In this document: piece after piece, positions 18,541 through 58,725 of the stretch
How the letters are laid out: every line of letters starts with the position of its first letter
Position numbering within the stretch: position 1 is the first letter of the stretch
From: an uncultured bacterium
GTDB lineage: Bacteria; Hydrothermota; Hydrothermia; B15-G9; WFZT01
Direction of reading: 5' to 3'
DNA: 64,000 nt
NCBI GenBank assembly: GCA_964571845.1
Contig: CAZNDM010000062.1
Location: forward strand, 18,258-82,257
Made by a program: the position numbers and the translations under genes
Notes under the pieces: generated by a model
What the model was told of the DNA's origin: nothing
The model's database searches: none
Seen by the model: only the letters and a program-made list of their open reading frames with translations

Positions 18541-19722
18541 TTAGCTTATCACACCAAGTTCACGCCCCACTTTTGCGAATTTCTCAAGTGCAAAATCGAG
18601 ATCTTCCTTTGAATGTGTAGCTGAAATCATGACCCTTATTCTTGCCTTACCGCGTGGAACTGTTGGATACCCGATTGCCTGGGCAAAAATACCTTCTTCA
18701 AAAAGTCTCTTGGAAAATTCCTGAGCAACACTCGCCTCGCCCAGCATGACCGGTGTTATTGGAGTCTGACTCTTACCAATGTCAAACCCGAGATTTTTCA
18801 TGTTTTCTTTGAAATACTTGGCATTATCCCAGAGCTTTCTCACAAGCTCGTCCGATTCCATGAGTATGTCCACAGCTGCAATTGAAGCTGCAACATCAGG
18901 TGGAGTTACCGCACTTGAGAAGAGGAATGGCCTTGCCTTCTGCTTAAGATATTCAACAATCTCTTTTGATCCTGCGACATAACCACCCACAACACCAAAA
19001 GCCTTCGAAAGTGTCCCGACCTCAATATCAACCTTTCCGTGAAGATCGAAATGATCCACTATACCTCTGCCACCTCTACCAAGTACGCCCTCACCGTGGG
19101 CATCATCCACCATCAGGATTGCCTCGTACTTTTCTGCTATTTCAGCAATCTCTGGTAGTGGCGCGATGTCTCCGTCCATTGAGAAAACACCGTCTGTTAC
19201 AACAAGTTTCCTCCTGTATTTCGGACCCTCCTCTTTCAGCTTTCTCTCAAGATCTTCTGGATCGTTGTGGTTATACCTTATGATCGTCGCTCTTGAAAGC
19301 CTTGAACCATCAATGATAGATGCATGGTTCAATTCATCTGAAAAAATGGCATCTCCTCTTCCAACAAGTGCAGGTATGGTTGCAAGATTGGCGTTGAAAC
19401 CACTCTGGAAAGAGATGGTCGCCTCTGCTCCCTTAAACTCTGCAAGTTTCCTCTCAAGCTCGTTGTGCAGGGACATGGTGCCAGCAATGGTCCTTACAGC
19501 CGCCGGTCCAACACCAAATCTATCTATTGCCTCCTTTGCCTTCTTTCTCAATTCAGGATGATTGGCAAATCCAAGGTAATTGTTTGAACACAGATTCAAT
19601 ACTTTCTTGCCGTCAACGACAATCCAGGCACCCTGCGGGGACTCAATGGTCCTGATGATGATGTAAAGTCCCTCTTTCTTCAGATTTTCTATGTCTTCAC
19701 GAATAAAATCGAGTTTTCCCAT
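18541..19722 (-). CDS. kbl: Glycine C-acetyltransferase (2-amino-3-ketobutyrate CoA ligase)
   Basis: The protein belongs to the alpha-oxoamine synthase family ([12 protein letters not shown]; PLP lysine region GTLSKAFG). It lies immediately downstream of tdh in the same orientation. Confidence 0.85.
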
Positions 19723-19732
19723 GCTTCACCTC

Positions 19733-20761
19733 CTAAAAACTCATAACAATTTTTGCAGCTTCCTTCTTTATCAAAAGCTCCATCCCCTTTTCAATCTCGT
19801 CAATTTTCAACTGATGAGTGATTATTGGTGTTAGATCAACCTTACCTGACGCAAGGAGAGCCGTTGATTGGTACCATGTCTCAAACATTTTGCGCCCCGT
19901 AATTCCGTATATCTTCAATCCCTTAAAAATCACATTTTCAGCAAGATCAACGGAAATTTTCTTGTGAGGGATTCCGAGAAGGGAGATTCTGCCCCCATTT
20001 CTTATAACTTTAAACATCTGCTGGATAGCTGGCTCGGCTCCTGACATCTCAAGCACAACATCCACACCGAGACCACCTGTCTCATCGAGAATCACCTCGA
20101 TGGGATTATCTTTCTCTGGATTGATCAGCCTATCAGCTCCCATCTTTTCACCGAGAGACAGACGAAAACTGTTGGGCTCGATAAGGAATATCCTCGAGGC
20201 TCCTCCTGCCCTTGCCACAGCAACGGACATAAGACCAATAGGTCCCCCTCCAAAAACCGCAACTGTCTTGGCTGTTATATCTTCAACAAGTGTAGAATAA
20301 ACGGCATTTCCAAATGGCTCCTGAAGAGTGGCAACCTCAGGCGGGATGGTTCTATCAGTCTTCCATACATTCTCCTCCGGCACCTTCACATATTCAGCAA
20401 ATGCACCGTTTACATCCACCCCCAGGATCTTGACATTCACGCAAATATGGGAGTTTCCTGTCCTGCATAAATAACAATGCCCGCAGGCAATGTGTGTCTC
20501 TGCTGAAACATAATCCCCCGGATTAACGGATTTTACCTCCTTACCCACCTCGACGACTTCACCTACAAACTCGTGACCAAATATGATAGGCGGCTTTATT
20601 CGGGAAGCGGACCACTCGTCCCATGTGTATATGTGTACATCTGTGCCACAGATACTGTTCTTAATAACTTTAATCAACACATCATGGGGACCTACCTCGG
20701 GAATCGGGGCATCCACGATCTCGAGGCCCGGTCCCGGCTTCTGTTTCATAACAGCTTTCAT
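19733..20761 (-). CDS. tdh: L-threonine 3-dehydrogenase (zinc-dependent medium-chain dehydrogenase/reductase)
   Basis: MKAVMKQKPGPGLEIVDAPIPEVGPHDVLIKV...CGTDVHIY carries the zinc-binding motif, and a Rossmann GGGPIGL motif follows. Met20 of the tracked ORF is preceded by a GGGAGG RBS. Confidence 0.85.
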   Translation of the reverse strand: MKAVMKQKPGPGLEIVDAPIPEVGPHDVLIKVIKNSICGTDVHIYTWDEWSASRIKPPIIFGHEFVGEVVEVGKEVKSVNPGDYVSAETHIACGHCYLCRTGNSHICVNVKILGVDVNGAFAEYVKVPEENVWKTDRTIPPEVATLQEPFGNAVYSTLVEDITAKTVAVFGGGPIGLMSVAVARAGGASRIFLIEPNSFRLSLGEKMGADRLINPEKDNPIEVILDETGGLGVDVVLEMSGAEPAIQQMFKVIRNGGRISLLGIPHKKISVDLAENVIFKGLKIYGITGRKMFETWYQSTALLASGKVDLTPIITHQLKIDEIEKGMELLIKKEAAKIVMSF

Positions 20762-21075
20762 TTTCAAGCCTCCCTGTAAAATAACCCGTCCAAAGTATAA
20801 TTCAACCAAATGAACCATTCAATCGTGTTAAATACATATATCAGGGACAGAAACCCACCCATCCATCAACCACACTAAAATGCTCTTGAAAAAAGATAGC
20901 ACTCCGGATCAGCCACTTCAAAAAAGTCTGTGGCTATACGACACGAATATGACATTAGTGTCGAAAGAAACCGCTAAAAATTGTTCTGCATAAAACGGGA
21001 AGTGATCGTTTTTTCCTCCGTATTGAAGAGCTTTGATGGCTGCATTTTTGTCCCTGCAAAGTGTAAGACTGTTAG

Positions 21076-28674: not shown

Positions 28675-31600
28675 TCACTTCAGTATCACAATCTTCCTCG
28701 TCTTACTGTAATTTCCAGCCTCAATGCTCAAAAAGTACACTCCTCCACGAATCTTTTCCGTACTCCAGTCGATACTGTGGTTTCCTGCCTCCATCCTTCC
28801 CTCGTACAACTTTGACACAACCCTGCCACTCACATCATACAGTCTAATTTTGACATCCGTTGCCGCTGGAATAACAAATGAGATCTTCCCTCTTCTAACC
28901 ACTGGATTCGGTGTTACATCGAAGAAGAACTTTACGGGTTTCAGAGCACCCTCACCCACGCCCACTGTCGGGGGCAATGTCGTGAATTTGATGGCTTTAC
29001 CTGCTGATATTCCAGTTGCGAGTCTATCCGAGACACCGTCATAGTAAATCTGGATTCCGTCTGTTTCTGAAGCGTTTTCAATTCCTGTCGTGAAATCATC
29101 CTGCATTGGATCAGATAGATACTGGAAAACAATTTCCCCGTCACCTGTAGGTGTTGTGTAGTACATTGGATCGTAGAGGAGCACCTGAAATGTCTCCACC
29201 TCGTTTGAATGGGCAAAATGAGGCACCTGATACCATTCCACGATAAAAATGTGGTTGTCAGAGTCATAGTAATATGCGACCTGGCCACCTCTTGAGGGAT
29301 TGAGGTCGTCCCACAGGGGAGCAATCATATTTGATGGACCATCACTGTTGGGTATGCCAGAGTTGCTGAAATCTCTTGCATTCTCACTGCCCATAGCAAG
29401 GTTTCCATTTGATCCGATGGTAATCTGGGTGAATGATGCACCGTAATAGTTAAATGTGAATGGGAGATTAACGAGCTGGTCATCGTCGTCTCCGAGCTGG
29501 ATGACCGTTCCGCTACCGCCAGCCGCAGGTGCAATTTCTATCCAGTTGAAAACCGGTGCCGGTGAATAGGAAGAGTCGTTGTTCTCGTAAGCATAATAAC
29601 CGTAGCTATCAGGTCCTGATGGATCATTCACCGTCATCTGACCTATTGTGAGTGTGTAATTAATACTCTTGGTATAACCGGATGAATCCACGAGTGTAAT
29701 TGTCAGTTCTGCACTATGCTCTCTCGGTGTGGATGGAGATGCCTGAACAAAGAACATTGTGTCGCTCACCTCGCCTCCGTTGGCTGGAATAGAGGGGATA
29801 AAGGCGGTCGAATCAAGGACCTGGAGAAATGTGTCCTGTGTGGACAGAGAGACTGAGACATTGCCGGCGTCCTGTGTCCCAATATTCCTAAGAGTTACGA
29901 GAAACCTTCCACTTTCACCGGGATCGATCACCCCATTTCCCGACTCATCAAGAACGGAGATTCCGGTAAAGCTAACAACCACACCTTCAAGCGGCAGGTC
30001 CTTTTCAATGGTGAGATCGTCGATATACCATCCGTCCCGTGTAATTGAGCCGTCAGAGGTAATGAGAAATCTGATGTACACGGTGGTTGAACCCACAAAG
30101 GGCGAGAGATTGACAAAAACCTCCTCCCATGTGCTTTGCGAGCCGTTAACAGAAGCGAGATTTGTCCATTCGCCATTGGGGTCTGTCGCAGCCTGGACAT
30201 AACCATAGTCAAAGCCACTTTCAAATTCATACCTCTGCCAGAAGTGGAGTCTTGCGAAGTAGGCGTCAGAAAGATCTATTGGTGTCGCAAGCATTGCATA
30301 GTAATTTGCGTTGTTTGGATACTGACCATTGGGGGAATCGGTGAGACTTCCATTCCCCGAATGGGCGTAAGATGTGGTGATTCCCCAGCTACCTGTTAAT
30401 ACCCAATCGGGAAGAGAAGACTCAAAGTCCTGTACATACCAGGGGTAGTAAGTGGGCTGTCCTATGACAACCGTAATCGTGTCAACTTTGGTGTATCCGG
30501 TCATGGATGTGTCACTACCTGTAATTGTGATGACAAATTGAGCGGCGAGACCGGCACGCCATGTTGAATCAACTGAAAATGAGAATCCATCTCCTGAAAC
30601 TATAGAGTCATGCGGGATATCACCGTAAAATGAGGAGTTGTCCGTGATCGTGATAAGCGGGTTATCGGTTGATATCGTGGCATTCACATTGAGGACATCA
30701 AGTCCCAGGTTTCTAAGAGGAATGGTCATTGTTACACTCTCTCCTGGATCCGGCATACCATTACCATTTCCAGACGCATCATCATACACAGGTTGAAGTA
30801 ATCTCAGGTAAGGAGCGTCAAGAGTCGGAGTTGATTCAATGACTTTCAGGGCATTTATACGACCCCACCCATAGTCGTTGTTGGGATAGGTATTGCCTGC
30901 TGGATGATCGACACCATAGTTTGTGAGAATATCATAAATGGTACTGTAGTCGAGAGATGGATTGAGTTCAAACATAAGGGCAATGACACCGGTTACATGG
31001 GGAGTGGCCATGGATGTTCCATCCCAGCTTTCGTAACCGCCGCCGGGTGTGCTTGATCTAACATTGACTCCTGGAGCTGAAATATCGGGCTTGATAAAAT
31101 TCCAGTCTGGTCTTGACCAGAGTGTCGTATCTGACCAGGGGTACTGGTTGGGAGCCGGTCCCCTCGAGCTAAAGCTCGCAATATTATCATTAATGTCTGT
31201 TGCTCCAACTCCGATAACATTTGGAAAGTTACCGGGTGTTCCAGCAGATCCACTACCGGGACCAGAATTACCGCTGGCAAAAACCGGGATTATGTCAAAC
31301 TCGTGCCAGGCCCTCACAAACGGTAAAAAGGTCGTGTCTGTTTCATCCGTACTACCCCATGAATTAGACACAGCCTTTATGTCCACACCTGAATCGACTT
31401 TCAAGGACACGAACCACTGGAAACATTCGATAATATCCTGATCCTGCCCGCTTCCTCCGGAATTAAATGCCTTGGCAGATGCAATCTGTGCCCTGTAAGC
31501 CACGCCAATGTCGTTTGTAAACGGACCAGGTCCATCACCACCAGCAATTGTCCCGGCCACATGTGTTCCGTGGCCGTGATCGTCATACGGGGTCGTCCTG

Positions 31601-32169
31601 TCATTCACAGCATCAAAGAAATAACCTGAGAAGTTGCCAGATAAGGCAGGGTGTGATGGATCTATTCCAGTGTCCATTGTTCCGACTATTACACCGTCTC
31701 CTGAGAGGCCATAGGCAGACCAAACTGAATCTGCTTTTATTTTCGTGATATTCCATTCAACAGACTTCTCCTGGGGTATGTCTTTAAAAGACTTTTTGGG
31801 CATAATGATGTGTCTCTCACGCACAACATCGACGAGAGCGACATCTTCTCTCTTCGCAAGCTCGACAATTACCTCTGGTGTGGCTTTGACATATAGCATG
31901 TTCACAAGCCAAAAACTCTCATACTCGGCAACATCTTCGGAACTCAGGAATGATATGACATCCCTCTGTGAATTCCTTGCGACGGTTTTCAGGACTTCGG
32001 CTTTGGCTTTGTAGCCTTTAATACCTGAAAGGTCCGCCTGCTGTTTCATCCAGACAAGAGCCTGAATACTCTCTCCAGGCCCTGCCTTGCTCAGTTTCTC
32101 CATCATGGCATCAGAAAGTTTCCCTGCATACAGGGAAGTTACCATGACCAGTGCAAGCAGATACTTCAT
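28675..32169 (-). CDS. Large secreted subtilisin-like serine protease (peptidase S8) with an I9 propeptide, extra beta-rich domains and a T9SS C-terminal sorting domain
   Basis: There is a signal peptide. The S8 motifs are DTGIDPSHPAL (Asp), HGTHVAGTIAGGDG (His) and GTSMATPHVTGVIALMF (Ser). The C-terminus GGVYFLSIEAGNYSKTRKIVILK is a T9SS CTD. Its N-terminal half is paralogous to 6532..9402. Confidence 0.85.
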   Translation of the reverse strand: MKYLLALVMVTSLYAGKLSDAMMEKLSKAGPGESIQALVWMKQQADLSGIKGYKAKAEVLKTVARNSQRDVISFLSSEDVAEYESFWLVNMLYVKATPEVIVELAKREDVALVDVVRERHIIMPKKSFKDIPQEKSVEWNITKIKADSVWSAYGLSGDGVIVGTMDTGIDPSHPALSGNFSGYFFDAVNDRTTPYDDHGHGTHVAGTIAGGDGPGPFTNDIGVAYRAQIASAKAFNSGGSGQDQDIIECFQWFVSLKVDSGVDIKAVSNSWGSTDETDTTFLPFVRAWHEFDIIPVFASGNSGPGSGSAGTPGNFPNVIGVGATDINDNIASFSSRGPAPNQYPWSDTTLWSRPDWNFIKPDISAPGVNVRSSTPGGGYESWDGTSMATPHVTGVIALMFELNPSLDYSTIYDILTNYGVDHPAGNTYPNNDYGWGRINALKVIESTPTLDAPYLRLLQPVYDDASGNGNGMPDPGESVTMTIPLRNLGLDVLNVNATISTDNPLITITDNSSFYGDIPHDSIVSGDGFSFSVDSTWRAGLAAQFVITITGSDTSMTGYTKVDTITVVIGQPTYYPWYVQDFESSLPDWVLTGSWGITTSYAHSGNGSLTDSPNGQYPNNANYYAMLATPIDLSDAYFARLHFWQRYEFESGFDYGYVQAATDPNGEWTNLASVNGSQSTWEEVFVNLSPFVGSTTVYIRFLITSDGSITRDGWYIDDLTIEKDLPLEGVVVSFTGISVLDESGNGVIDPGESGRFLVTLRNIGTQDAGNVSVSLSTQDTFLQVLDSTAFIPSIPANGGEVSDTMFFVQASPSTPREHSAELTITLVDSSGYTKSINYTLTIGQMTVNDPSGPDSYGYYAYENNDSSYSPAPVFNWIEIAPAAGGSGTVIQLGDDDDQLVNLPFTFNYYGASFTQITIGSNGNLAMGSENARDFSNSGIPNSDGPSNMIAPLWDDLNPSRGGQVAYYYDSDNHIFIVEWYQVPHFAHSNEVETFQVLLYDPMYYTTPTGDGEIVFQYLSDPMQDDFTTGIENASETDGIQIYYDGVSDRLATGISAGKAIKFTTLPPTVGVGEGALKPVKFFFDVTPNPVVRRGKISFVIPAATDVKIRLYDVSGRVVSKLYEGRMEAGNHSIDWSTEKIRGGVYFLSIEAGNYSKTRKIVILK

Positions 32170-33235: not shown

Positions 33236-33272
33236 AAATTTGTGGACGCTATTCAAAAGGGAGGTTTCGTGC

Positions 33273-34415
33273 ATGATTGAACTATTGCGAAATTTAACTA
33301 TCCTCGTGCTGGTTTCATTAAAACCAGCTCCGGCAACCAATGTTAGAGCCTTTGACACTCCCAATGATGCTGGAGGAAGTGTTATCGTAAAATGGGACCT
33401 CTCAAAAGACGATTCTATCGTGACAAAGTATGAGATCATCAGGATCGTGGGGAGTCCTGATGGCAAAAGGGTAACTGCTGGATTTGTACTTCGTGGTACA
33501 AACACTTACAGGGATGTGGATCTTAAAAACGGTGAAAAATACTACTACATGGTTAGGACATGGGCAGACGGAGAATATTCGGACTCTGAGATAACAGCTG
33601 AGCCAGCGATACCCCGTCCCCAATGGTTCCATACCAAACGAGTCGTTGCACTTATCATCCTCCTCGTATTCGGGTCCCTGTTTTTCTATTACTTGAAGCT
33701 GGCAAAAGAAGGTGCTCCACTCTGGATCAGAAAGATTGCCGGTCTTGAGGCAATTGATGAGGCTGTTGGTAGATCAGTTGAGATGGGACGGCCTATTCTT
33801 TACATCCTCGGACTTGGATTCATATCAGACATACCGACCATTGCAGGTCTTGCCATACTTAAGAGAGTTGCCAAAAAGGCCGCTGAATACGAGGCAGATA
33901 TTATTGTTCCCAACTATGATCCCATCGTGATGGTTGCTGCGCAGGAAACGGTAAAGGAAGGATACATGGAAGCAGGAAGGCCCGATCTGTTTAACGAATC
34001 AAATATTATGTTTCTCACTCAGGACCAGTTTGGGTACGCCGCCGGTGTTGATGGAATAATGGTAAGGGAGAAACCTGGAGCCATCTTCCTTCAGGGTCTA
34101 TTCTATGCTGAATCCCTTATCCTTGCTGAGACAGGGCACTCCATAGGTGCGATACAGATCTCCGGAACAACATCGGTAACCCAGCTCCCATTCTTTATTG
34201 CTGCAACAGACTACACACTTATCGGAGAGGAAATGTATGCAGCAAGTGCTTATTTAACGAGGGATCCACTGGCACTTTCTACGCTAAAGGCAGAGGACAT
34301 CATGAAAGCCCTATTTATCGGCCTCATGGCACTGGGCACAATTTTCGAAACTATCGCCCTTCTGACTGGTAATCCGGGTTTTCATGTTCTTAAAAACTTT
34401 TTCAACATGTTTTAA
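33273..34415 (+). CDS. Membrane protein with an N-terminal extracytoplasmic fibronectin type III-like domain, one TM helix and an uncharacterised ~230-aa C-terminal domain
   Basis: The start MIELLRNLTILVLVSL (signal-like) is preceded by an AGGGAGG RBS. An FN3-like beta-sandwich follows (VRAFDTPNDAGGSVIVKWDL...YEIIRIVG...GEKYYYMVRTWADGEYSDSEIT), then the TM helix VVALIILLVFGSLFFYYL. The C-terminal domain has no motif I recognise. Confidence 0.5.
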   Translation: MIELLRNLTILVLVSLKPAPATNVRAFDTPNDAGGSVIVKWDLSKDDSIVTKYEIIRIVGSPDGKRVTAGFVLRGTNTYRDVDLKNGEKYYYMVRTWADGEYSDSEITAEPAIPRPQWFHTKRVVALIILLVFGSLFFYYLKLAKEGAPLWIRKIAGLEAIDEAVGRSVEMGRPILYILGLGFISDIPTIAGLAILKRVAKKAAEYEADIIVPNYDPIVMVAAQETVKEGYMEAGRPDLFNESNIMFLTQDQFGYAAGVDGIMVREKPGAIFLQGLFYAESLILAETGHSIGAIQISGTTSVTQLPFFIAATDYTLIGEEMYAASAYLTRDPLALSTLKAEDIMKALFIGLMALGTIFETIALLTGNPGFHVLKNFFNMF

Positions 34416-34427
34416 CGGAGGAAGACT

Positions 34428-35213
34428 ATGAAAAGGGAAGTTCCAATAGCAATTACCTTTATTTCCGGTGTATTACTCGTGATTGCGTTCTTTATCCCGC
34501 ACGAGCCTTTTGGAAGCCTCGAGCAGAGATTCAACGACTGGTACATAATCGTATCTGGATTTGCACTTATCCTCGGAATTGATTCTTTGCTTCTGCACCA
34601 CTGGAACAAGGTCTCAAGAAGAAGCAAAGATTGGTTCCATTCATTGAGTTTGATCATCGCCTTTTTCGTAACCCTGATATGGGGATTTTATTCCGGGATC
34701 AAGACGGGGCATTTTCTCTCAGCACAGTCAACATTCAGACAGTACTTCTACATGTATGTCTTCGTCCCGTTGCAGGCAACGATGTTCTCACTTCTTGCGT
34801 TTTTCATTGCATCAGCAGCGTACCGTGCGTTCCGGGCTGACAGATTTGAAGCTGCTCTGCTCCTCTTCTCAGCAGGAATTGTCATGCTCGGAAGAGTTCC
34901 CCTCGGAAATTCTGTAGCTCCATACATGGTTGCTCTCGTATTCCTCATTTTTGCCTTCCTGCTGTACACTGACGGCCGAAAAGAAGTTGATCCTATGAGG
35001 AAATATCTCAAGATTGGGGGAGCCGTAGTGAGTCTTCTCCTGATTTACCCTGTTGGATGGTTCTTCCTTCACTATACGGCACAGACAGCGGGATGGATAA
35101 TGAATATACCACAGCTTGCGGCCAAAAGAGGGATCTTTGTCGGGATAGCTCTCGGTGGTATTGCGATGTCTCTCAGAATTATCCTTGGCATAGAAAAAAC
35201 TTATCTGAGGTGA
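34428..35213 (+). CDS. Uncharacterised polytopic membrane protein (~7 TM)
   Basis: Hydrophobic helices run throughout (VPIAITFISGVLLVIAFFI..., IIVSGFALILGI..., LSLIIAFFVTLIWGF... and so on). It starts 12 bp after the previous stop. Confidence 0.5.
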   Translation: MKREVPIAITFISGVLLVIAFFIPHEPFGSLEQRFNDWYIIVSGFALILGIDSLLLHHWNKVSRRSKDWFHSLSLIIAFFVTLIWGFYSGIKTGHFLSAQSTFRQYFYMYVFVPLQATMFSLLAFFIASAAYRAFRADRFEAALLLFSAGIVMLGRVPLGNSVAPYMVALVFLIFAFLLYTDGRKEVDPMRKYLKIGGAVVSLLLIYPVGWFFLHYTAQTAGWIMNIPQLAAKRGIFVGIALGGIAMSLRIILGIEKTYLR

Positions 35214-35217
35214 GAAA

Positions 35218-36036
35218 ATGAAATACATTGAGAAACTTGCAAGAATTGACAGAAGGATAATTTATCTGATCCTCTTTTTAACGGTTCTGCTGCCTTATCT
35301 TTTTAAGATCAGTCTGCCGATGAAACCACTTCCTGAGGTGGTTCAGGCTTATAAGGAGATAGACAAACTTCCCGCTGGATCAGTTGTTATGATTTCAATA
35401 GACTACGATGCGGCTTCCATGCCTGAGGTCCAGCCCATGCTGTACGCGATTCTTCGACACTGTTTCAGCAAAGACCTGAAAATCATCATGCTTGGTCACT
35501 GGCCTCTTGGAATCCCTCTTGGTATTGCAGCTCTCGAGGATGTGGCGAAAGAATACGGTAAAAAATACGGTGAAGATTATGTGTTTCTCGGATTCAGACC
35601 GGGGGTTGCCGCTGTAATGATCAACATTGGTAAAGAAATCAGATCCGTGTTCAGAGAGGATTACTGGGGTACTCCGCTCGATTCTCTACCAATGATGCGG
35701 AATGTCCACACATACGATGATATCGCCATCCTCGTGGGACTTGAGGCAGGAGCGACCGGAGACTACTGGGTACAGTATGCTCAGGCGAGATACAATCAAA
35801 AGATCATACTGGGTGGAACAGCAGTGGTGGCGCCTGACTGGTATCCCTATTTACAGTCCAACCAGATCGTGGGCCTGATAGGCGGTCTTAGAGGTGCTGC
35901 TGACTACGAGAACCTTGTTCATAACAAAGCTCTTGCTTACTACGGAATGACTCCTCAGGCAGCAGTTCACATTCTCATCGTCATATTCATAATTCTCGGT
36001 AACATCGGATACTTAGCATTAAGGAGGAGGAAGTAA
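35218..36036 (+). CDS. Uncharacterised bitopic membrane protein (N- and C-terminal TM helices flanking a ~200-aa soluble domain)
   Basis: An N-terminal TM helix (IIYLILFLTVLLPYLF) and a C-terminal TM helix (VHILIVIFIILGNIGYLAL) flank a soluble domain. It lies 4 bp after the previous stop. Confidence 0.5.
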   Translation: MKYIEKLARIDRRIIYLILFLTVLLPYLFKISLPMKPLPEVVQAYKEIDKLPAGSVVMISIDYDAASMPEVQPMLYAILRHCFSKDLKIIMLGHWPLGIPLGIAALEDVAKEYGKKYGEDYVFLGFRPGVAAVMINIGKEIRSVFREDYWGTPLDSLPMMRNVHTYDDIAILVGLEAGATGDYWVQYAQARYNQKIILGGTAVVAPDWYPYLQSNQIVGLIGGLRGAADYENLVHNKALAYYGMTPQAAVHILIVIFIILGNIGYLALRRRK

Positions 36037-36037
36037 A

Positions 36038-36682
36038 ATGGCACAGGTTTTCTGGACTTGGGTAGCTGCATTTTTAACCCTCGCTATATTCAGCTTTTTG
36101 TACAAGGATAATCCTTTTTACAAATTTGCAGAACACATTTATGTTGGCAGTTCCGCAGCTTTCTGGTTCGTTTACCTCTGGTATTTCGACATAAAACCCA
36201 AACTCATTGACGGCTGGAGGTACAACACGGGATTGGAAAAATATATTTTGATCATCCCGGCTATTCTTTCAGTTTTTATGCTCATGAGATTTATAAGACC
36301 CCTTGCCTGGCTTTCACGGTGGGCAATTGCATTTACCGTCGGAATGGCAGCAGGACTTGGAATAACAGCGGCTCTTCAGGGCTTCCTCGTTCCGCAGATC
36401 CAGGCTACATTTCTGCCACTCTGGGTCTCCAAAGGGAATTTCTGGCAGTCTCTCGGTGCCTCCCTGAACAACATTGTTCTCGTGCTCGGAACCATTGTAA
36501 CAATCTTTTACTTTTACTTCTCCAAGGAGCACAAAGGTACTCTCGGTGCACTCTCACGGGCAGGTATCGTGTTTATCATGATCGCTTTCGGAGCATCCTT
36601 CGGCTATACGGTAATGGCAAGAATATCACTGCTGATCGGTAGGGTTTATTTTCTAATTCACGACTGGTTGCACATTGTCTAA
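36038..36682 (+). CDS. Uncharacterised polytopic membrane protein (~6 TM)
   Basis: Six hydrophobic helices are present. It starts 1 bp after the previous stop and overlaps lspA by 8 bp. Confidence 0.5.
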   Translation: MAQVFWTWVAAFLTLAIFSFLYKDNPFYKFAEHIYVGSSAAFWFVYLWYFDIKPKLIDGWRYNTGLEKYILIIPAILSVFMLMRFIRPLAWLSRWAIAFTVGMAAGLGITAALQGFLVPQIQATFLPLWVSKGNFWQSLGASLNNIVLVLGTIVTIFYFYFSKEHKGTLGALSRAGIVFIMIAFGASFGYTVMARISLLIGRVYFLIHDWLHIV

Positions 36683-37145
36683 AAAATTAAGTAACAGCCT
36701 GCTCACCATACTCATTGTCGTTGCAGTGGATCAGGTCTCAAAGTATCTGGTTTACTCGAACCTCAAGCTCTATCAGTCAATTCCACTGATAGATGATATT
36801 TTGAGGATCACCTACATCCACAATCCAAATTCCGTTTTCGGTCTCAGTCTTGGATCCCGATTTCCGTATCCTCTCATGATCATTGTCCTCATCCTGATTG
36901 TGGGTGTTATCTGGTTCTTTGAGAGACGAGCAGAATTCTACTATCTCTACAGCGCAATTATCGGAGGAGCAATCGGGAATCTGATAGACAGGGTTAGATT
37001 CCACGAGGTGGTTGATTTTATTGACATAGGGATCTCAAAAAACCTGAGATGGCCCGTTTTTAACATAGCGGATGCTTCAATTTCAATTTCTGTTGTATTA
37101 ATATTAATCCTGAGTTTGAAAAAATCCGGATCGGAGGTAGATTAA
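36675..37145 (+). CDS. lspA: Lipoprotein signal peptidase (signal peptidase II)
   Basis: ILRITYIHNPNSVFGL, GGAIGNLIDRV and VFNIADASISISVVL carry the conserved Asn/Asp boxes, including the catalytic Asp of FNxAD. It is 156 aa with 4 TM helices. Confidence 0.85.
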   Translation: MSKKLSNSLLTILIVVAVDQVSKYLVYSNLKLYQSIPLIDDILRITYIHNPNSVFGLSLGSRFPYPLMIIVLILIVGVIWFFERRAEFYYLYSAIIGGAIGNLIDRVRFHEVVDFIDIGISKNLRWPVFNIADASISISVVLILILSLKKSGSEVD

Positions 37146-37148
37146 AAC

Positions 37149-38180
37149 ATGCTCAACGCCTTTTGGGTTACAACTTTATATTTTTTTCTGGGAGCGAACT
37201 CTGTTCTGCCGGTAACTTCGCTTTCAATTGCTGATTCTCTATACAATCCCGGTGTATTCAAAAACACGGAAAAATTCAGTTTAAATTTAATCATAGAACC
37301 TTCGTTTATCACTGAGATCGAAGACGAGTACGAATATGCATACGACCAGTTCAACTCGACTATTGGAAAGATAAATACATACAGCGGTCAGTTTTCCTAT
37401 GTGAAGCCGGTGAACATGCTACTTGGATGGACCTATAAAAACTTCAGCTTTGTAGCTGGATACGAACTTTACAAATCCTTTGAGAAGAGGGTGGATAGGG
37501 ATATCTACAATAGAGATAACATGAGGATTGTGCACGAACACTTTGTTTCAAAAGGGGGAATCAGTGGAATTTATGCAGGATTCGGAATAAAAAACCGTCG
37601 TATCGGGGTTGGCACCAGAATTGTTAGATATACTTACGACCTCTCACTGGACGATGATACAGACCTGAATAGTGAAAAAACTGGTATTGAGATCTTTTCA
37701 AATGTAAACATTACCAGGAGGATCAGAGTTTCAACATTTTTCAGCCCGGATGTGGACTTTTTCAAGGCTCATCCTTCGGAGCAGTACTTGAATTATCTAC
37801 AGGAAAACTTCCTCAACTACCACAGACTGCCAGACAGAAAGGGACTGGAAATCGTTTATCTTCCAGCAACGGACATTGTTACCATGACATCATTCACATT
37901 AATGAAAGAAGGGGAATCAAGATACATCCATCTGGATTTCAAGCACAACTTCCTTAATGTAAACGCCTTTGAATTTGGAGGAGGACTCTTCAGAGATAAA
38001 AACGACAGATGGGGCAGCTTTGTCAATTTCGGTCTTGGAATGTTGTATAAAAATCTTGGATTTGACACGCAGGTGAGGTACAGTTTCGTTGCCGACGAAG
38101 GCTCCAGTTTGTGTGAAAATCCATGTGAGAAAAATTTCTCTCTTGTAACCTTAAATCTGGTTTTGAGGTACAGGTTATGA
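37149..38180 (+). CDS. Putative outer-membrane beta-barrel protein (family unassigned)
   Basis: A signal peptide (…FFLGANSVLP) is followed by a Tyr/Asn/Asp/Gly-rich sequence with alternating hydrophobic strands. It lies 3 bp after lspA. Confidence 0.4.
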   Translation: MLNAFWVTTLYFFLGANSVLPVTSLSIADSLYNPGVFKNTEKFSLNLIIEPSFITEIEDEYEYAYDQFNSTIGKINTYSGQFSYVKPVNMLLGWTYKNFSFVAGYELYKSFEKRVDRDIYNRDNMRIVHEHFVSKGGISGIYAGFGIKNRRIGVGTRIVRYTYDLSLDDDTDLNSEKTGIEIFSNVNITRRIRVSTFFSPDVDFFKAHPSEQYLNYLQENFLNYHRLPDRKGLEIVYLPATDIVTMTSFTLMKEGESRYIHLDFKHNFLNVNAFEFGGGLFRDKNDRWGSFVNFGLGMLYKNLGFDTQVRYSFVADEGSSLCENPCEKNFSLVTLNLVLRYRL

Positions 38181-39058
38181 CCGCAATACTAATTTTTGTG
38201 GTCCTGGGGTTTTCTCAAAAATCGTTCAGCTATAATTACCTTCTGCTTCCATTTGGAAGTGATGGTGCGGTCTTTCGAACTGCACTCGTGTCGGACCCGA
38301 CATCCGATTTTTCAGTTTACTACAATCCGTCCTTCAAATTCCACTCAAAGCTGGCTACATTTGCCTCTTCCTATCTTGTGGGATCGAGCTACGGAGGTAT
38401 TCTGTTTTCTCCAGCAAAAGACATAACTGCTGGAGTGCTGTTCTTTTCCGACGGTGGACAGGACGAAGTGAACTATGAGGGAATAAAGATCGGGACATAC
38501 TCATCCACTTATCTCTCACTCTTTGCGAGCACACCATTACCCTACACACACAGGATAGGTGAAAGGGTATTAGTTTCTGGTGTTACCGGGAAACTGCTTT
38601 ATCAGTCCATTGCCGATAGAAAATCTCTTGCAGTTGCAATTGATGGCGGGATTTATCTTCCATTCAATTCGAGGGTAAAAATTGGTGCATCTGTGAGGAA
38701 CATCGGTATCGAAATCAAACATTTCTACGAAAAGAACTACTTTCCACCGCCTGTAATTTCCATAGGGGGTTTTGTCAAATTATCAGAAAAACTCGTGTTT
38801 CTCCTTGCCGGTGGTCTGGAGCTGAATTACGGCTTTATTTTCGACGCAGGAATCCGATTATCTCCTGTCAGGATGTTTCAAATTTCAGCAGGATACTCGC
38901 TCAAAGGACGGGAGCTGAATACAGGAGCAAATCTTGACATCTTGAATGGACTTGCAGGCGGATTTATTTTTAAGGTCAAAGATCTCAAAGTGAGTTATTC
39001 AATTATGCCCATGGGGGAACTTGGACTCACACATTATGTTGGCATAGTTTACAGATAA
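38177..39058 (+). CDS. Putative outer-membrane beta-barrel protein (family unassigned; possibly T9SS/envelope-associated)
   Basis: A signal peptide (MTAILIFVVLGFS) is followed by amphipathic beta-strands to the C-terminus (…GLTHYVGIVYR). It overlaps the previous gene by 4 bp. Confidence 0.4.
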   Translation: MTAILIFVVLGFSQKSFSYNYLLLPFGSDGAVFRTALVSDPTSDFSVYYNPSFKFHSKLATFASSYLVGSSYGGILFSPAKDITAGVLFFSDGGQDEVNYEGIKIGTYSSTYLSLFASTPLPYTHRIGERVLVSGVTGKLLYQSIADRKSLAVAIDGGIYLPFNSRVKIGASVRNIGIEIKHFYEKNYFPPPVISIGGFVKLSEKLVFLLAGGLELNYGFIFDAGIRLSPVRMFQISAGYSLKGRELNTGANLDILNGLAGGFIFKVKDLKVSYSIMPMGELGLTHYVGIVYR

Positions 39059-52645: not shown

Positions 52646-52744
52646 CACAAACTTCCCCGATCTTGCTTTTCCACTGAAAAGTACCATTTTTGATCTTTAA
52701 TGACGAAAGTATAAGTGATTGAGAGCCTCCTTTTATCCTAAACC

Positions 52745-53165
52745 CGCGATGGTGTTTGAAAAACATTTCTCCGGGGTAAAAGGGATATTTAATTTTTTAA
52801 CTTTCTCCCCCCGGGCGTTCGGTACTGAAGGGACACTCATCGTACTCTTTTCCACAGGATACATCAACCCTGTGTGGGAGACACTCATCAATCTTCTCCC
52901 CACTTTGTGGGGAGGATTGACTGGAAGAGAAGTAAGTGGTCTTTTTGCCCTCCCCTCAATCCTCCCGCAATGCGGGAGGGGAGTTGTGGGTACTCCCGCA
53001 GAGCGGGAGATTGTAGGTGAAATCTCACAAACGGGCGGGAAGGTTGCAGGTGGATTTTCACAAATGGGGGGAGGTTGTGGGTCGATCTTCTCGCAAGCAT
53101 AAGGGAGAAAAAGAGAGTTTTTTCCGCAAAGTAAAGTGAAGTATCTACTGGCAAAATATTTTCGG
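52745..53165 (-). repeat. Copy C of the composite intergenic repeat family, inverted orientation
   Basis: The reverse complement matches copy B almost end to end (…CTTTGCGGAAAAAACTCTCTTTTTCTCCCTTATGCTTGCG / CCACCCACAACCTCCCCCCATTTGTGAAAAT… / …AAGGGGAGGGCAAAAAGACCAC…AGTTAAAAAATTAAATATCCCTTTTACCCC…TTTTTCAAACACC). The internal tandem units lie at 52961-53085. Confidence 0.6.
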
Positions 53166-53244
53166 ACATCCTCTTCTCTGACACTTGGCAATTGTAATGA
53201 AACCAAATATAATAAAGTGTTCATTATTTTAGAAGGAGGATGTC

Positions 53245-54426
53245 ATGGATATTTTCCAGAAATGTGCCAACTTCGTGGAGGCAGACAAGGTTAAAGAGGA
53301 AGGGCTTTATCCATACTTCAGACCAATAGCCTCAGCTGAGGACACTGAGGTGATCATCGAGGGCAAAAAAGTCCTGATGTTCGGGTCTAACAATTACCTT
53401 GGCCTGACAGTCCATCCAAAGGTTAAAGAAGCAGCCATCAAGGCAATAGAAAAGTATGGTACGGGAACATGTGGATCACGATTTCTCAACGGCACTCTTG
53501 AAATACATCTGGAGCTTGAAAGAAAGCTTGCCCGGTTTATGAAAAAAGAGCGTGCACTCGTATTTTCTACAGGTTATCAAACAAACCTTGGCACAATATC
53601 AGCCCTCGCCGGAAAAGATGATGTTGTCATCACTGATAAATGGGACCATGCGAGTATCATAGACGGTACAAGACTGTCTCTCGGTGAAATAAGAAGGTTT
53701 AAACACAACGACATGGCTGATCTCGAACGGGTTTTGAAGTCTATACCAGACAATAAGGGAAAACTTATTGTCGTTGATGGTTTATTCAGCATGGAAGGAG
53801 ATATTGCTGATCTTCCCGGTATTGTAGAACTTGCCAAGAAATATGGTGCAAGACTTATGGTGGATGATGCCCATGCGATCGGTGTACTTGGTCCAAATGG
53901 TCGAGGAACAGCCGAGCACTACGGCCTTGAAGATGAAGTGGATCTCGTCATGGGTACATTTAGCAAGTCCTTTGCCTCTCTCGGTGGATTTATTGCAGGA
54001 AAAGAATATGTTGTTAATTTCATCCAGCATTTTGCGAGATCCCTGATCTTCTCTGCAAGTATGCCACCTGCAAATGTGGCAGCCGTCTCTGCCGCTCTTG
54101 ATATTATTATCAACGAGCCAGAAAGGAGACAGAGACTCTGGGACAACACAAAAAGAATGCTCGAAGGACTTAGGGGAATGGGTTATGACACCGGCTTATC
54201 AGAAACCCCTGTTATTCCTGTAATCATCGGAGATGACATGAAAACATTCATGTTCTGGAGGGCTCTGCTGGACAACGGTGTTTATGTAAATCCTGTAATT
54301 TCCCCAGCAGTTCCCCCGGGAAGACAGCTTCTCAGAATCAGCATGATGGCCACACACACTGATGAACAGATCGATCGGGCACTTGAAATTTTTGAAAAGC
54401 TCGGCAAAAAATTTGGAATAATATAA
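53245..54426 (+). CDS. Alpha-oxoamine synthase family PLP enzyme, serine palmitoyltransferase-like (second paralog besides kbl)
   Basis: FGSNNYLGL...[25 protein letters not shown] resembles SPT (GSRxLNGT...H.ELE) more than BioF or Kbl. The PLP-Lys region is [12 protein letters not shown]. The protein is 393 aa and is not adjacent to bio genes. Confidence 0.65.
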
Positions 54427-54438
54427 AGGAGGACCGAT

Positions 54439-54960
54439 ATGGCAACCAAAGACGATGTTATTAAGGCTTACGAATTCGCAATAGAACTTGAGAAAGAAAG
54501 CCTTAAAAGCTATCTTGATCTTGCAAAAAGAACCCATGACATGACCGGAAAAAACATGTTTATCTGGCTCGCAAGGGAAGAATTTGAACACATGAGAATC
54601 CTCGAAGCCATAAGGGACAGGGTCCTGAAGGATCTGCCCATTGGCAAAATAGAAATAGAGGAAGACGAGCTCGAAAAACTCCTACCTGATATCAAAAAAC
54701 TCGAAAAGAAAAAATCCACTGCCGCGGAAACCCATCAGATTGACGCACTCCAAGCCGCACTCGAACACGAAGCCCAATCGCGAGACTATTACAAAGAACA
54801 GGCAGATAAAACGGATGACCCTGAATTGAAGCAGCTTTTTAACAGACTTGCCGAGATGGAACAGGCCCACTATGACCTTATTCTCGCACAGCTTGACTTT
54901 ATCAAGGGAACGGGCTTCTGGTTTGGAATTCCTGAATTTGATGTAGAAGGACCTGCCTGA
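54439..54960 (+). CDS. Rubrerythrin-like / ferritin-like diiron four-helix-bundle protein (no rubredoxin domain)
   Basis: Two E-x-x-H diiron ligand motifs are present (REEFEHMRILE and EMEQAHYDL), and the protein is all-helical. It lies 12 bp after the SPT-like gene. Confidence 0.55.
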   Translation: MATKDDVIKAYEFAIELEKESLKSYLDLAKRTHDMTGKNMFIWLAREEFEHMRILEAIRDRVLKDLPIGKIEIEEDELEKLLPDIKKLEKKKSTAAETHQIDALQAALEHEAQSRDYYKEQADKTDDPELKQLFNRLAEMEQAHYDLILAQLDFIKGTGFWFGIPEFDVEGPA

Positions 54961-54973
54961 AACCTAAAAACTT

Positions 54974-55516
54974 TTACCACCCGGGAGGGGGAGGGGTCTG
55001 AATACTTTTTTGCTTCTTGGTTTGCCAAAAATCGTAAAAAGCCAGAACCAATCCTGCAAATGCAAATAAAACACTGAGGAAGAAATCAACTCCCGGAACT
55101 TTTTTAACCTTGGCTGGTTTCATTCTTAGCTTCTTCTTTTCAAAAACCATTTTTGCAATGTTATCAACCCTTTCACCAGTGATCAAAAATATATCTGTAA
55201 AAGGAATCCTGACCACATACCCTTTCACAAGCACCGCATCTCTATCCCTGACTCTATGATTGTTTGTTAAAACAAAAACTCTATTATTCTGCATTAAAGA
55301 TAAAAATCTAACATTTGATAACGATATAAGGTCGTTAATGAATGGAATCTTTTCAAAACTCGTCTCTTTAACATTTCCAACAAGCTTTACCTTCTCCCCG
55401 GTCTTAAAATCTACATGTGAATTACCCACTTTTGTCACGCCTAATTTAGGGTATGTGTATAACGAAAATAAAATACCTACCACAAAAAGTATCAATCCCA
55501 CAATAACTTTATTCAT
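54974..55516 (-). CDS. Hypothetical membrane protein (N- and C-terminal TM helices)
   Basis: A 180-aa ORF fills an otherwise empty gap. It has hydrophobic N-terminal and C-terminal helices and a Pro-rich tail (…TPPPPGW). Confidence 0.35.
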   Translation of the reverse strand: MNKVIVGLILFVVGILFSLYTYPKLGVTKVGNSHVDFKTGEKVKLVGNVKETSFEKIPFINDLISLSNVRFLSLMQNNRVFVLTNNHRVRDRDAVLVKGYVVRIPFTDIFLITGERVDNIAKMVFEKKKLRMKPAKVKKVPGVDFFLSVLFAFAGLVLAFYDFWQTKKQKSIQTPPPPGW

Positions 55517-57750: not shown

Positions 57751-58725
57751 ATGATCGTTGTGACAGGTGGAGCCGGGTTTATAGGAAGCGCCATTATCTG
57801 GCGGCTAAATATGGAAGATATCAGGGACATCCTTGTGGTTGATCATCTTGGCACATCTGACAAATGGAAAAATCTTTCACCCCTTTATTTCAAAGACTAC
57901 ATGGAGAAGGATGAATTCATAAAACTGATCGAAGCTGGAAAAGAAATCCCGAATCTGGATGTCATTGTCCACATGGGGGCACGGAGTGATACACTCGAAA
58001 AAGACATGAGTTTTCTTATCGAGAATAACTTTAAGTTCTCTCAAAAGCTTGCAAAGTACGCAATTTCAAGGAACATTAAATTCGTTTACGCCTCCAGCGC
58101 GGCAACTTACGGCAGTGGTAAGCTTGGTTTTGATGATAATGAGGTTCTACTGCATTCCCTTAGACCTCTCAATCCCTATGCATTTTCAAAGCATATTTTT
58201 GATCTGTGGCTTTATGAGAACGATCTTCTCAGGTACACAGTTGGACTGAAATTTTTCAATGTTTATGGTCCTAATGAGTATCACAAAGGTGAAATGCGGA
58301 GTAAGGTACTTAAAGCCTACGAGGAGATAAAAAAGACCGGCAGGATAAAACTTTTCAGGTCGTACAATCCAAAATTCAGGGATGGAGAGCAGAAGAGGGA
58401 TTTTATTTACATAAAAGATGCTGTGGAGATCGTTATGTTTCTTATAAAAAACGAGAGAGCTCATGGAATATACAATGTGGGCACCGGGAAGGCACACTCC
58501 TGGCTTGATCTTGCAAATGCGGTGTTTAAAGCACTTGAAATGGAGCCGCAAATCGAATTTATAGACATGCCGGATTGGCTGAAACCCCGGTATCAATACT
58601 TCACGCAGGCCAGTATATCAAAGTTAAGAAGACTCGGCTATCCGGGACAGTTTTACTCCTTTGAAAATGCGGTGAGGGAGTACATAAAAGAATACATAGA
58701 ACCGGGAAAACACCTCGGAGACTAA
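57751..58725 (+). CDS. hldD: ADP-L-glycero-D-manno-heptose 6-epimerase
   Basis: MIVVTGGAGFIGSAIIWRLN, VYASSAATYGSG, FNVYGPNEYHKGEMRS and RDFIYIKD align closely with HldD/RfaD signature regions. Confidence 0.85.
   Translation: MIVVTGGAGFIGSAIIWRLNMEDIRDILVVDHLGTSDKWKNLSPLYFKDYMEKDEFIKLIEAGKEIPNLDVIVHMGARSDTLEKDMSFLIENNFKFSQKLAKYAISRNIKFVYASSAATYGSGKLGFDDNEVLLHSLRPLNPYAFSKHIFDLWLYENDLLRYTVGLKFFNVYGPNEYHKGEMRSKVLKAYEEIKKTGRIKLFRSYNPKFRDGEQKRDFIYIKDAVEIVMFLIKNERAHGIYNVGTGKAHSWLDLANAVFKALEMEPQIEFIDMPDWLKPRYQYFTQASISKLRRLGYPGQFYSFENAVREYIKEYIEPGKHLGD

Follow-up and report, generated by a model that had tools for sequence, protein, structure and literature searches.

A probable serine palmitoyltransferase gene in a lineage-specific operon with an erythrin-like diiron protein gene in candidate division WOR-3

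Introduction

Why would a bacterium that already has a Kbl-Tdh pair carry a second alpha-oxoamine synthase (AOS), and what does the small diiron protein encoded directly behind it have to do with that enzyme? The question is raised by two adjacent genes in a 64-kb stretch of DNA (the window) from a diderm member of candidate division WOR-3 with LPS and T9SS genes. A preliminary description had read the synthase (gene A) as a serine palmitoyltransferase (SPT) or a cysteate acyltransferase rather than BioF, and its neighbour (gene B) as either a lipid hydroxylase- or desaturase-like accessory or an oxidative-stress protein. The 'Spt-like' clade of these synthases occurs in 38-40 phyla (Ding et al. 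2024, PMC11334938).

Results

The two genes lie as had been described. Gene A (53245..54426, plus strand) encodes an AOS of 393 aa that contains the motifs quoted for it earlier, and gene B, 12 bp 3' of it (54439..54960, plus strand), encodes a diiron four-helix-bundle protein of 173 aa with two E-x-x-H motifs. A predicted sigma-70-type promoter-like site (TTGGCA, 17 nt, TATAAT; 53185..53213, plus strand) lies about 30 bp 5' of gene A; it agrees with the consensus at 11 of 12 positions, the best fit in the region. Each gene is preceded on the plus strand by an AGGAGG that reads as a Shine-Dalgarno sequence, at 53234..53239, 5 nt 5' of the ATG, for gene A and at 54427..54432, directly 3' of the gene A stop codon and 6 nt 5' of the ATG, for gene B, and no terminator-like site was found between the two genes. 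The non-coding stretch of about 530 bp 5' of gene A has no Rfam match and is not conserved in relatives, and on these grounds a regulatory RNA there was rejected. We also rejected ORF C (54974..55516, minus strand) as a member of the operon: it is convergent, has no family match, and was seen only in contigs of the same species and in L110.

Gene A matches Pfam Aminotran_1_2 (229 bits), and its top NCBIfam model is NF047600, the Bacteroidota-type (CFB) SPT, at 591.9 bits, which leads the runners-up (450 for a Kbl-related model, 448 for the beta-proteobacterial SPT and 418 for bioF) by more than 140 bits. The three NCBIfam SPT models are lineage-specific equivalogs, and gene A falls short of each curated cutoff (591.9 vs 640 for NF047600, 448.5 vs 500 for NF047599, 378 vs 670 for NF047603); the first of these scores places it outside the narrowly defined Bacteroidota SPT family. 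The closest solved structures are those of Sphingobacterium multivorum SPT (SmSPT; 3a2b and 8guh), which align without gaps over residues 5-388 at 464 bits. Other PDB scores are 336 bits for Sphingomonas SPT, 288-293 for Kbl, 268 for a cysteate-C-fatty acyltransferase, 250 for the SulA-like 7u7h and 223-245 for BioF. Gene A is closer in sequence to SmSPT (53.6% identity) and the Parabacteroides orthologue (56.5%) than to the Kbl encoded in the window (44.0%) or to Escherichia coli BioF (33.5%).

The residues of SmSPT that bind PLP and L-serine are Asn52, Tyr54, Gly80, Ser81, His138, Ser185, Asp210, Ala212, His213, Thr241, Ser243 and a C-terminal Arg (PMC10196870). The PLP and L-serine contacts of SmSPT are all conserved in gene A (N49, Y51, G77, S78, R79, F80, N82, H135, S182, D207, A209, H210, T238, S240, K241 and R364), and N49, Y51, G77, S78, H135, S182, D207, A209, H210, T238, S240 and R364 are kept in 71-72 of 72 family members. 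The G-T-F-S-K-S sequence around the PLP-binding lysine, described as characteristic of SPT (PMC10196870), is present at G237 to S242 with the catalytic lysine at K241; it is not exclusive to SPT, being found also in a Bacillus-type BioF. The SPT clade stands apart from every Kbl and BioF reference at positions 82 and 271, where it has Asn and Ala and they have A, C, S or T at the first and S, N or T at the second. In a neighbour-joining tree with 100 bootstraps, few outgroups and poorly supported internal branches, the Bacteroidota SPTs, proteobacterial Spt and the gene A family form a clade with 85% bootstrap support, and Kbl, BioF and the window's own Kbl fall outside it. The tree thus covers SPT, Kbl and BioF sequences; for SulA, CqsA, ALAS and the broad-specificity Thermus AOS, PDB bit scores serve as a proxy.

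Gene neighbourhoods in relatives point in the same direction. Among 74 loci of the gene A family from about 20 phyla, a CerR-type reductase is found near the synthase in 42 and a bacterial ceramide synthase (bCerS) in 30, mostly within 500 bp; both were identified by profile matches (bCerS and CerR at 386 and 199 bits) to the canonical Rahnella Spt-ACP-CerR-acylAMP ligase-bCerS cluster. Of the nearest outgroups, the 75% relative has CerR (222 bits) and the 72% relative has bCerS, a DAG-kinase-like gene and CerR (522 and 337 bits for bCerS and CerR). In two other WOR-3 genomes (L060 and L073) bCerS lies downstream of Spt, the slot that the diiron gene fills in the lineage studied here. It is by such bCerS and CerR flanks that Spt-like proteins have been recognised in the literature (Ding et al. 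2024, PMC11334938). The search for ceramide synthase and reductase homologues that the preliminary description had proposed came back empty at this locus: no gene for bCerS, CerR, a KdsR-like SDR, ACP, acyl-AMP ligase, a DAG-kinase-like protein or PAP2 was found in the window or in the 10 kb past its right end (about 74 kb), which leaves a complete ceramide pathway in this organism hypothetical. Two candidates for the missing steps were rejected. An extended SDR at 57751..58725 passes the ADP-glyceromanno-heptose 6-epimerase equivalog (375.7 vs 274.6) and reaches 74 bits with the CerR-type profile, against 199-337 bits for true neighbours; gene B as a non-homologous stand-in for either enzyme was dropped because it is a ferritin-like bundle on which the bCerS and CerR profiles are silent.

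Gene B matches Pfam Rubrerythrin (PF02915) at 43.6 bits, over a cutoff of 22.8, and its diiron ligands E18, E48-x-x-H51, E111 and E141-x-x-H144 are invariant across its family. It contains no cysteine and hence no rubredoxin domain, and neither Rubredoxin nor RUBY_RBDX matches it, which sets it apart from canonical rubrerythrins with their C-terminal Fe(Cys)4 domain. The AF2 model (pLDDT 80.6) is a ferritin-like four-helix bundle, and Foldseek matches it to bacterioferritins, 2fzf, TM1526 and the Mn-catalase KatB. Homologues of gene B, often as two to five tandem paralogues, lie in islands with AhpC/peroxiredoxin, Msr, rubredoxin oxidoreductase, rubrerythrin, ferritin, desulfoferrodoxin and catalase, or with IscS/NifU and rubredoxin; no lipid genes were found beside them in this context of oxidative stress and Fe-S assembly. 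Judged by its sequence and by these neighbours, gene B is most likely a redox/iron-stress protein, active in peroxide or oxygen detoxification or in iron handling in an anaerobe, and does not look like a lipid-modifying enzyme.

The pairing of the two genes has a narrow distribution. Spt stands beside a gene B homologue in 3 of the 78 loci of the B family, all of them in close relatives, and a diiron gene is found nearby in none of the 79 more distant Spt loci among the 80 genome loci examined; wherever the pairing occurs, gene A has 93% identity or more. The nearest genome with both genes has them on separate contigs. Within the clade, nucleotide similarity to three relatives (L004, L111 and L112; the first, 94% identical, is the basis of the WOR-3 assignment) sets in at the promoter, from 53180-53182 onwards, and the segment comprising promoter, gene A and gene B is the only one that the window shares with them, the flanks having been rearranged. 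Both genes have pN of 0.02-0.06 with synonymous sites saturated. The unit has thus outlasted rearrangements under strong purifying selection, which, with the single predicted promoter, indicates that this is a real, lineage-specific two-gene operon.

Discussion

We consider it probable that a WOR-3 Spt gene and a stress-type erythrin-like gene were brought together by translocation into a two-gene operon, with any functional link between them more likely to be co-regulation than shared chemistry. Gene A would be a soluble SPT of the homodimer type, in which PLP on K241 would form the external aldimine with L-serine, which would then undergo a decarboxylative Claisen condensation with an acyl-CoA or acyl-ACP thioester of long chain length. 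The product, 3-ketodihydrosphingosine, would be the first intermediate committed to making ceramides and sphingolipids. In related bacteria the later steps, N-acylation by bCerS and reduction of the ketone by CerR, are encoded beside Spt; in the studied lineage these genes, if present at all, would have to lie outside the roughly 74 kb examined. Gene B would be a rubredoxin-less, erythrin-like diiron-carboxylate bundle working in peroxide or oxygen detoxification or in iron handling. The two genes would have been joined in the ancestor of a narrow WOR-3 clade and would now be co-transcribed, and any link between them would more likely be the co-regulation of membrane remodelling and oxidative-stress defence than a common reaction. 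While the family assignments from sequence, structure and phylogeny, the anatomy of the operon and the spread of the pairing are shown directly, we infer the substrates and products, the biochemical activity of gene B and the reason for co-transcription.

The identification of gene A as a probable SPT draws on profile scores, the closest solved structure, active-site residues, tree placement and the bCerS/CerR neighbours of its relatives, which together support it well. The same data make it very unlikely that the enzyme is instead a BioF, a second Kbl or a broad-specificity AOS that makes a non-sphingoid aminoketone, even though many homologues are called 8-amino-7-oxononanoate synthase by JGI automated annotation, the GTFSKS motif is shared with a Bacillus-type BioF, the promiscuous Thermus AOS reaches 330 bits by phmmer, level with Sphingomonas SPT (336), and the window is devoid of downstream ceramide genes. 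The bioF model TIGR00858 comes close (417.8 vs a cutoff of 426.45) and the Kbl models score 450.5 vs 535.4 (TIGR01825) and 417.9 vs 460 (NF005394), but all three stay under their cutoffs, and the lead of the SPT model, the position inside the SPT clade, N82 and A271 in the SPT state, and the family's bCerS and CerR neighbours, in many phyla as in the closest outgroups, all argue for SPT. A true Kbl-Tdh pair is, as had been reported, already present: kbl (18541..19722, minus strand) scores 622 bits with TIGR01825 (cutoff 535) and 564 with NF005394 (cutoff 460), and the adjoining tdh (19733..20818, minus strand) scores 481 bits with TIGR00692 (cutoff 458). No biotin genes had been noticed nearby, and tblastn searches with BioA, BioB and BioD likewise found none in the 64-kb window. 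Of the two activities originally proposed, SPT is the one that the data favour. We give very little credence to a cysteate acyltransferase of the SulA/Cfat type that would start sulfonolipid (capnine) synthesis. Sulfonolipids are found in the FCB group, to which WOR-3 is allied, and the two enzyme types have their fold and nearly all active-site residues in common (PMC9304779), but the position of SulA Lys281, which is Ala in Spt (PMC9304779), is A271 in gene A and Ala in all 72 family members, and the solved cysteate enzymes score 268 and 250 bits against 464 for SmSPT. Substrate specificity in the AOS family is not safely readable from sequence, and some Spt-like enzymes have been suggested to use other amino acids (Ding et al. 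2024, PMC11334938).

What the diiron protein does beside an SPT gene admits several readings. Hydroxylation of lipid-like substrates is known for some small diiron four-helix proteins, Coq7 among them, and gene B has a complete diiron site, a predicted co-transcription with gene A and a conserved aromatic C-terminal motif, GTGFWFGIPEF, that is invariant in its family and unexplained. That it hydroxylates or desaturates the long-chain base or ceramide to which gene A leads is nevertheless highly improbable: no desaturase, hydroxylase or COQ7 family of Pfam or NCBIfam matches gene B at E<=0.01, the best 50 Foldseek PDB matches listed include ferritins, bacterioferritins and Mn-catalase and no desaturase or hydroxylase fold, the protein is a bare bundle of 173 aa with no substrate-binding extension, its family keeps company with stress and Fe-S genes rather than lipid genes, and the organisms are of an anaerobic group in which O2-dependent lipid oxidation would be unlikely. 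Among its refuting conditions the preliminary description had listed a diiron protein that groups with plain rubrerythrins outside any lipid context; that is what the homologues show, and by this measure the lipid-accessory reading is refuted. Its other suggestion, an oxidative-stress protein, is the one that gene context favours. A broader form of recruitment, in which the WOR-3 clade took up an erythrin-like protein as a dedicated partner of sphingolipid synthesis, either to modify the long-chain base in a reaction dependent on O2 or peroxide, or to tie sphingolipid output to oxidative stress in a protective or regulatory role, is a speculative and rather unlikely proposal. We are less sceptical, while still doubtful, about a physiological coupling in which the operon co-expresses sphingolipid synthesis and a peroxide-, oxygen- or iron-detoxifying protein as a stress-response unit. 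Such a coupling would account for an adjacency kept for so long in the clade, the promoter and both genes having stayed together through at least two rearrangements of the flanks in lineages with saturated synonymous sites, and MAGs with genes for Spt-like proteins are enriched in oxidative-stress functions (Ding et al. 2024, PMC11334938). Against it, the 12-bp gap is so small a target for breakpoints that the genes could have stayed together without selection for linkage, 79 of 80 Spt genome loci and 75 of 78 B-family loci do not show the pairing, and the two genes lie apart in the nearest genome with both. The physical link that had been proposed between the genes is therefore upheld within close relatives, and its long retention could reflect a real functional link, whereas a conserved Spt-diiron module is rejected; on present evidence the pairing is a lineage-specific gene arrangement and not a new system.

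Compared with known systems, gene A is closest to SmSPT and its Bacteroidales orthologues (Parabacteroides, Bacteroides), with the same length, a gapless alignment, 51-57% identity, the same soluble single-domain form, PLP and L-serine contacts and GTFSKS motif, and a place in the same clade of the tree. It differs in its WOR-3 host, in its score under the NF047600 cutoff and in its diiron co-transcription partner, where the Bacteroidales genes adjoin a DAG-kinase-like gene; Ala79 of SmSPT corresponds to Cys76 in gene A, and human SPTLC1 has Cys133 there. The Caulobacter-type Spt-bCerS-CerR pathway resembles the arrangement of the gene A family in many phyla, in the two other WOR-3 genomes and in the 72-75% relatives, but the studied lineage has no adjacent bCerS or CerR and no dedicated ACP or acyl-ACP synthetase nearby. 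Gene B shares with erythrin-type diiron proteins (Pyrococcus furiosus 2FZF, Thermotoga maritima TM1526/1VJX, symerythrin and bacterioferritin) a four-helix bundle with E/ExxH/E/ExxH ligands, a length of about 170 aa and a home in the oxidative-stress gene islands of anaerobes. It is only 15-22% identical to any of the solved structures, and differs from them in a long B-C connector that includes a short extra helix and in the C-terminal motif, in having no rubredoxin domain, and in showing no sign that it binds haem or forms cages.

Spt-like genes have already been published from about 40 phyla and gene A is a further member; in agreement with that distribution, our results extend the list of probable sphingoid-lipid producers to WOR-3, an uncultured and mostly anaerobic group. 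For annotation, Asn82 and Ala271 (window numbering) together with bCerS or CerR neighbours offer a working rule to tell Spt from BioF and Kbl paralogues that routine annotation mislabels as '8-amino-7-oxononanoate synthase'. If the diiron protein did prove to be a recruited partner, bacterial sphingolipid synthesis would gain an accessory not described before. The Spt-erythrin operon offers a slight hint that sphingolipids may be linked to oxidative-stress defence in anaerobes.

Locus and host

Gene A (53245..54426, + strand, 393 aa; Pfam Aminotran_1_2, 229 bits) and gene B (54439..54960, + strand, 173 aa; Pfam Rubrerythrin, 43.6 bits against a cutoff of 22.8) lie 12 bp apart, and their ORF coordinates and Pfam matches bear out the preliminary description of an alpha-oxoamine synthase paired with a rubrerythrin-like diiron gene. 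The same description had reported a genuine kbl beside tdh and no biotin genes nearby. This holds: the gene at 18541..19722 (-) exceeds the cutoffs of the glycine C-acetyltransferase (Kbl) models (622 vs 535 and 564 vs 460), that at 19733..20818 (-) passes threonine dehydrogenase models, and a tblastn search of the window with BioA, BioB and BioD gave no match. With the Kbl-Tdh pair present and bio genes absent from the window, gene A is genuinely a second paralogue among the alpha-oxoamine synthases.

The two genes sit in a core chromosomal region, downstream of argCBG, recF, dciA, gyrB, lptE and rlmD and upstream of sucD, an ADP-heptose epimerase gene, accA, parAB and gidB. The nearest genome match for gene A is in a candidate division WOR-3 MAG (L004, 94% protein identity). 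LptE, LspA, an OMP beta-barrel protein and two subtilases bearing T9SS sorting domains are further products of the window, which makes the host a diderm; its outer membrane is the compartment in which bacterial sphingolipids are found. Both large subtilisin-family proteases (6532..9402 and 28675..32169, - strand) carry a C-terminal Por_Secre_tail (type IX secretion) sorting domain, which fits an FCB-related diderm lineage. Around lspA, a DUF6754 protein and five proteins without a Pfam family (261, 272, 214, 343 and 293 aa) are encoded on one strand (33240..39058). Convergent with gene B, a 180-aa protein (54974..55516, -) has hydrophobic segments at both its N and C termini; it belongs to no Pfam or NCBIfam family, and its homologues are detectable only in same-species contigs and in one close relative (L110).

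Assignment of gene A

The top NCBIfam model for gene A is NF047600, the Bacteroidota-type serine palmitoyltransferase (SPT or Spt), with 591.9 bits, below its curated cutoff of 640; it leads every Kbl or BioF (8-amino-7-oxononanoate synthase) model by more than 140 bits, and those models likewise fall under their own cutoffs. The best solved structure is Sphingobacterium multivorum SPT (SmSPT, 3A2B/8GUH; 464 bits), aligned without gaps over residues 5-388, followed by Sphingomonas SPT (336 bits), a promiscuous Thermus alpha-oxoamine synthase (330), Kbl (288-293), cysteate acyltransferases (268 and 250) and BioF (223-245). Diagnostic residues were taken from studies of SmSPT (PMC10196870) and of the cysteate acyltransferase SulA (PMC9304779). 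All PLP/L-Ser contacts of SmSPT are kept in gene A (N49, Y51, G77, S78, H135, S182, D207, A209, H210, T238, S240, K241 and R364), which carries a G-T-F-S-K-S motif. The position occupied by a lysine in SulA (PMC9304779) is an alanine in gene A (A271), and in our alignment N82 and A271 distinguish every SPT-clade sequence from every Kbl and BioF reference.

A phylogeny with SPT, BioF and Kbl, part of the check that had been proposed, gave a concordant answer. In a neighbour-joining tree of 86 sequences, with references from PDB alignments, annotated genome records and E. coli K-12, gene A groups at 85% bootstrap with Bacteroidota SPTs, proteobacterial Spt and enzymes of Spt+ACP clusters, and the window's own Kbl clusters with E. 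coli Kbl outside this clade.

Bacterial ceramide synthesis has three core enzymes, Spt, bCerS and CerR (PMC11087976), and co-localisation with the latter two is the published criterion for an 'Spt-like' protein (PMC11334938). The analysis of neighbours covered 74 loci in about 20 phyla, with Spt-family proteins 59-69% identical to gene A; the Spt-family gene adjoins an extended-SDR gene in 42 of them and an unannotated gene of ~376 aa in 30. Profiles made from these neighbours, run on the canonical Rahnella Spt-ACP-CerR-acylAMP ligase-bCerS cluster, matched the CerR-position epimerase (199 bits) and the bCerS-position N-acetyltransferase (386 bits), respectively. Gene A's nearest outgroups keep the ceramide context of the wider family: its 75% relative has CerR downstream (222 bits), and in its 72% relative Spt is surrounded by bCerS (522 bits), a DAG-kinase-like gene and CerR (337 bits). 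In two WOR-3 loci (L060, L073) bCerS lies immediately downstream of Spt. Profiles, structures, residues, phylogeny and family neighbourhood, five independent lines, agree in identifying gene A as an Spt, as the SPT-like reading had held; its amino-acid and acyl-donor specificities we infer.

The bCerS family found beside Spt in 30 loci (e.g., L025:2795-3940; also L108:3859-4995) is clearly homologous to the Rahnella enzyme and has no Pfam-A (E<=1e-4) or NCBIfam (E<=1e-10) match, which suggests that the profile libraries lack this family. In seven loci from Anaerolineae and a Clostridium genome (L024, L044, L057, L072, L075, L078, L083) a classical short-chain dehydrogenase adjoins the Spt-family gene; it weakly resembles the 3-ketodihydrosphingosine reductase KdsR (119 bits, cutoff 400), not CerR, and this suggests that these lineages use another reduction step. 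Spt repeatedly has a membrane protein of the PAP2_3/PAP2_C family as its neighbour (L006, L008, L009, L013, L014, L026, L027, L034, L036, L040, L044; most of these are Desulfobacterota or Nitrospirota loci); sphingomyelin and IPC synthases belong to its fold class, which makes this protein a candidate head-group transferase. A DAGK_cat (diacylglycerol-kinase-family) gene lies directly beside Spt in two Bacteroidales loci (L084, L085), and DAGK_cat also neighbours Spt in a Roseomonas Spt-ACP cluster (L095) and the 72% relative (L108/L109); its product may be a conserved partner kinase for ceramide or sphingoid bases, and no homologue was found in the window. Spt-clade genes occur in Gram-positive lineages too: on the mobilizable Priestia megaterium plasmid NZ_CP137804 (L086; 56.7% identity), by an acyltransferase and a methyltransferase, and in an Spt-bCerS-CerR-LTA synthase cluster on the Rubrobacter radiotolerans plasmid NZ_CP007515 (L094).

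Gene B and its pairing with gene A

Gene A is preceded by a near-consensus promoter (TTGGCA-17-TATAAT, 53185-53213), both genes have an AGGAGG ribosome-binding site, that of gene B starting directly after the gene A stop codon, and no terminator was found between them; judged from these signals, the two are almost certainly on one transcript. Between rlmD and the promoter, about 530 bp (52646..53180) appear non-coding, with two 33-nt direct repeats (53005-53070) and two CTCCCGCAnnGCGGGAG hairpins; Rfam gives no match to this stretch, the closest relatives do not conserve it, and public gene calls put a 117-aa ORF without a family within it.

The diiron protein had been proposed as either a lipid accessory or an oxidative-stress protein. 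Lacking any cysteine, gene B cannot have a rubredoxin domain, and its diiron ligands (E18, E48-x-x-H51, E111, E141-x-x-H144) are complete and invariant across 22 homologues. Its AlphaFold model (pLDDT 80.6) shows a four-helix bundle plus one additional short helix, and Foldseek matched it in the PDB to bacterioferritins, P. furiosus 2FZF, TM1526 and the Mn-catalase KatB (TM 0.56-0.64), with no desaturase or hydroxylase among the matches listed; a profile search of PDB sequences agrees. An invariant aromatic C-terminal motif of the family, GTGFWFGIPEF (residues 157-167), is modelled with low confidence (pLDDT 42-56), and the matched ferritin-like structures contain nothing equivalent. A KSB1 homologue neighbours peroxiredoxins, methionine sulfoxide reductase, a rubredoxin-type oxidoreductase, two more erythrin-like genes, a canonical rubrerythrin, ferritin, desulfoferrodoxin and catalase; others lie in tandem arrays with IscS, NifU, rubredoxin and a desulfoferrodoxin N-domain, or beside UbiA and cytochrome b5. 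With no lipid context in these neighbourhoods and no such fold match listed, the lipid-accessory proposal is not supported, and homologues among stress and Fe-S genes favour its alternative. Gene B is a member of an uncharacterised erythrin-like subfamily, and the evidence supports a role in redox or iron stress.

Among 80 genome loci with the Spt family, gene B adjoins Spt only in the 94% relative; of 78 metagenomic loci with the gene B family, Spt is present in just three, those whose B is at least 93% identical, and the 66% homologue has no Spt. In GCA_053997435.1, a 72% Spt and a 62% gene B homologue are on separate contigs, the latter adjoining transketolase and DUF1573 genes. Confined to the closest relatives and with its two genes apart in that genome, the arrangement is derived; a translocation placed B beside Spt in the common ancestor of one narrow clade of WOR-3. 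The four A-B lineages share only 77-79% DNA identity, with synonymous sites saturated and pN of 0.02-0.06 for both genes, and the segment common to them is exactly promoter+A+B, its flanks being unrelated or inverted. Purifying selection on both genes is strong, and the operon is an old one. The 12-bp junction is a very small breakpoint target, so that retention alone does not prove a functional link; the operon is a lineage-specific arrangement.

Search for a ceramide pathway in the host

No bCerS, CerR, KdsR-like SDR, PAP2_3, ACP, acyl-AMP ligase or DAG-kinase-like gene was found in the 64-kb window or 10 kb past its right edge. The sole extended SDR near the two genes (57751..58725) was considered as CerR and rejected, being a bona fide ADP-heptose epimerase. 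In Bacteroidota the pathway genes are dispersed (PMC11334938), and by analogy dispersal is possible in gene A's host. No paper that ties WOR-3 to sphingolipids in substance turned up in a full-text literature search. One study reports Spt-like proteins with links to bCerS and CerR from 38-40 bacterial phyla and finds the genomes that carry them statistically enriched in oxidative-stress functions (PMC11334938); gene A adds one more Spt to this group.
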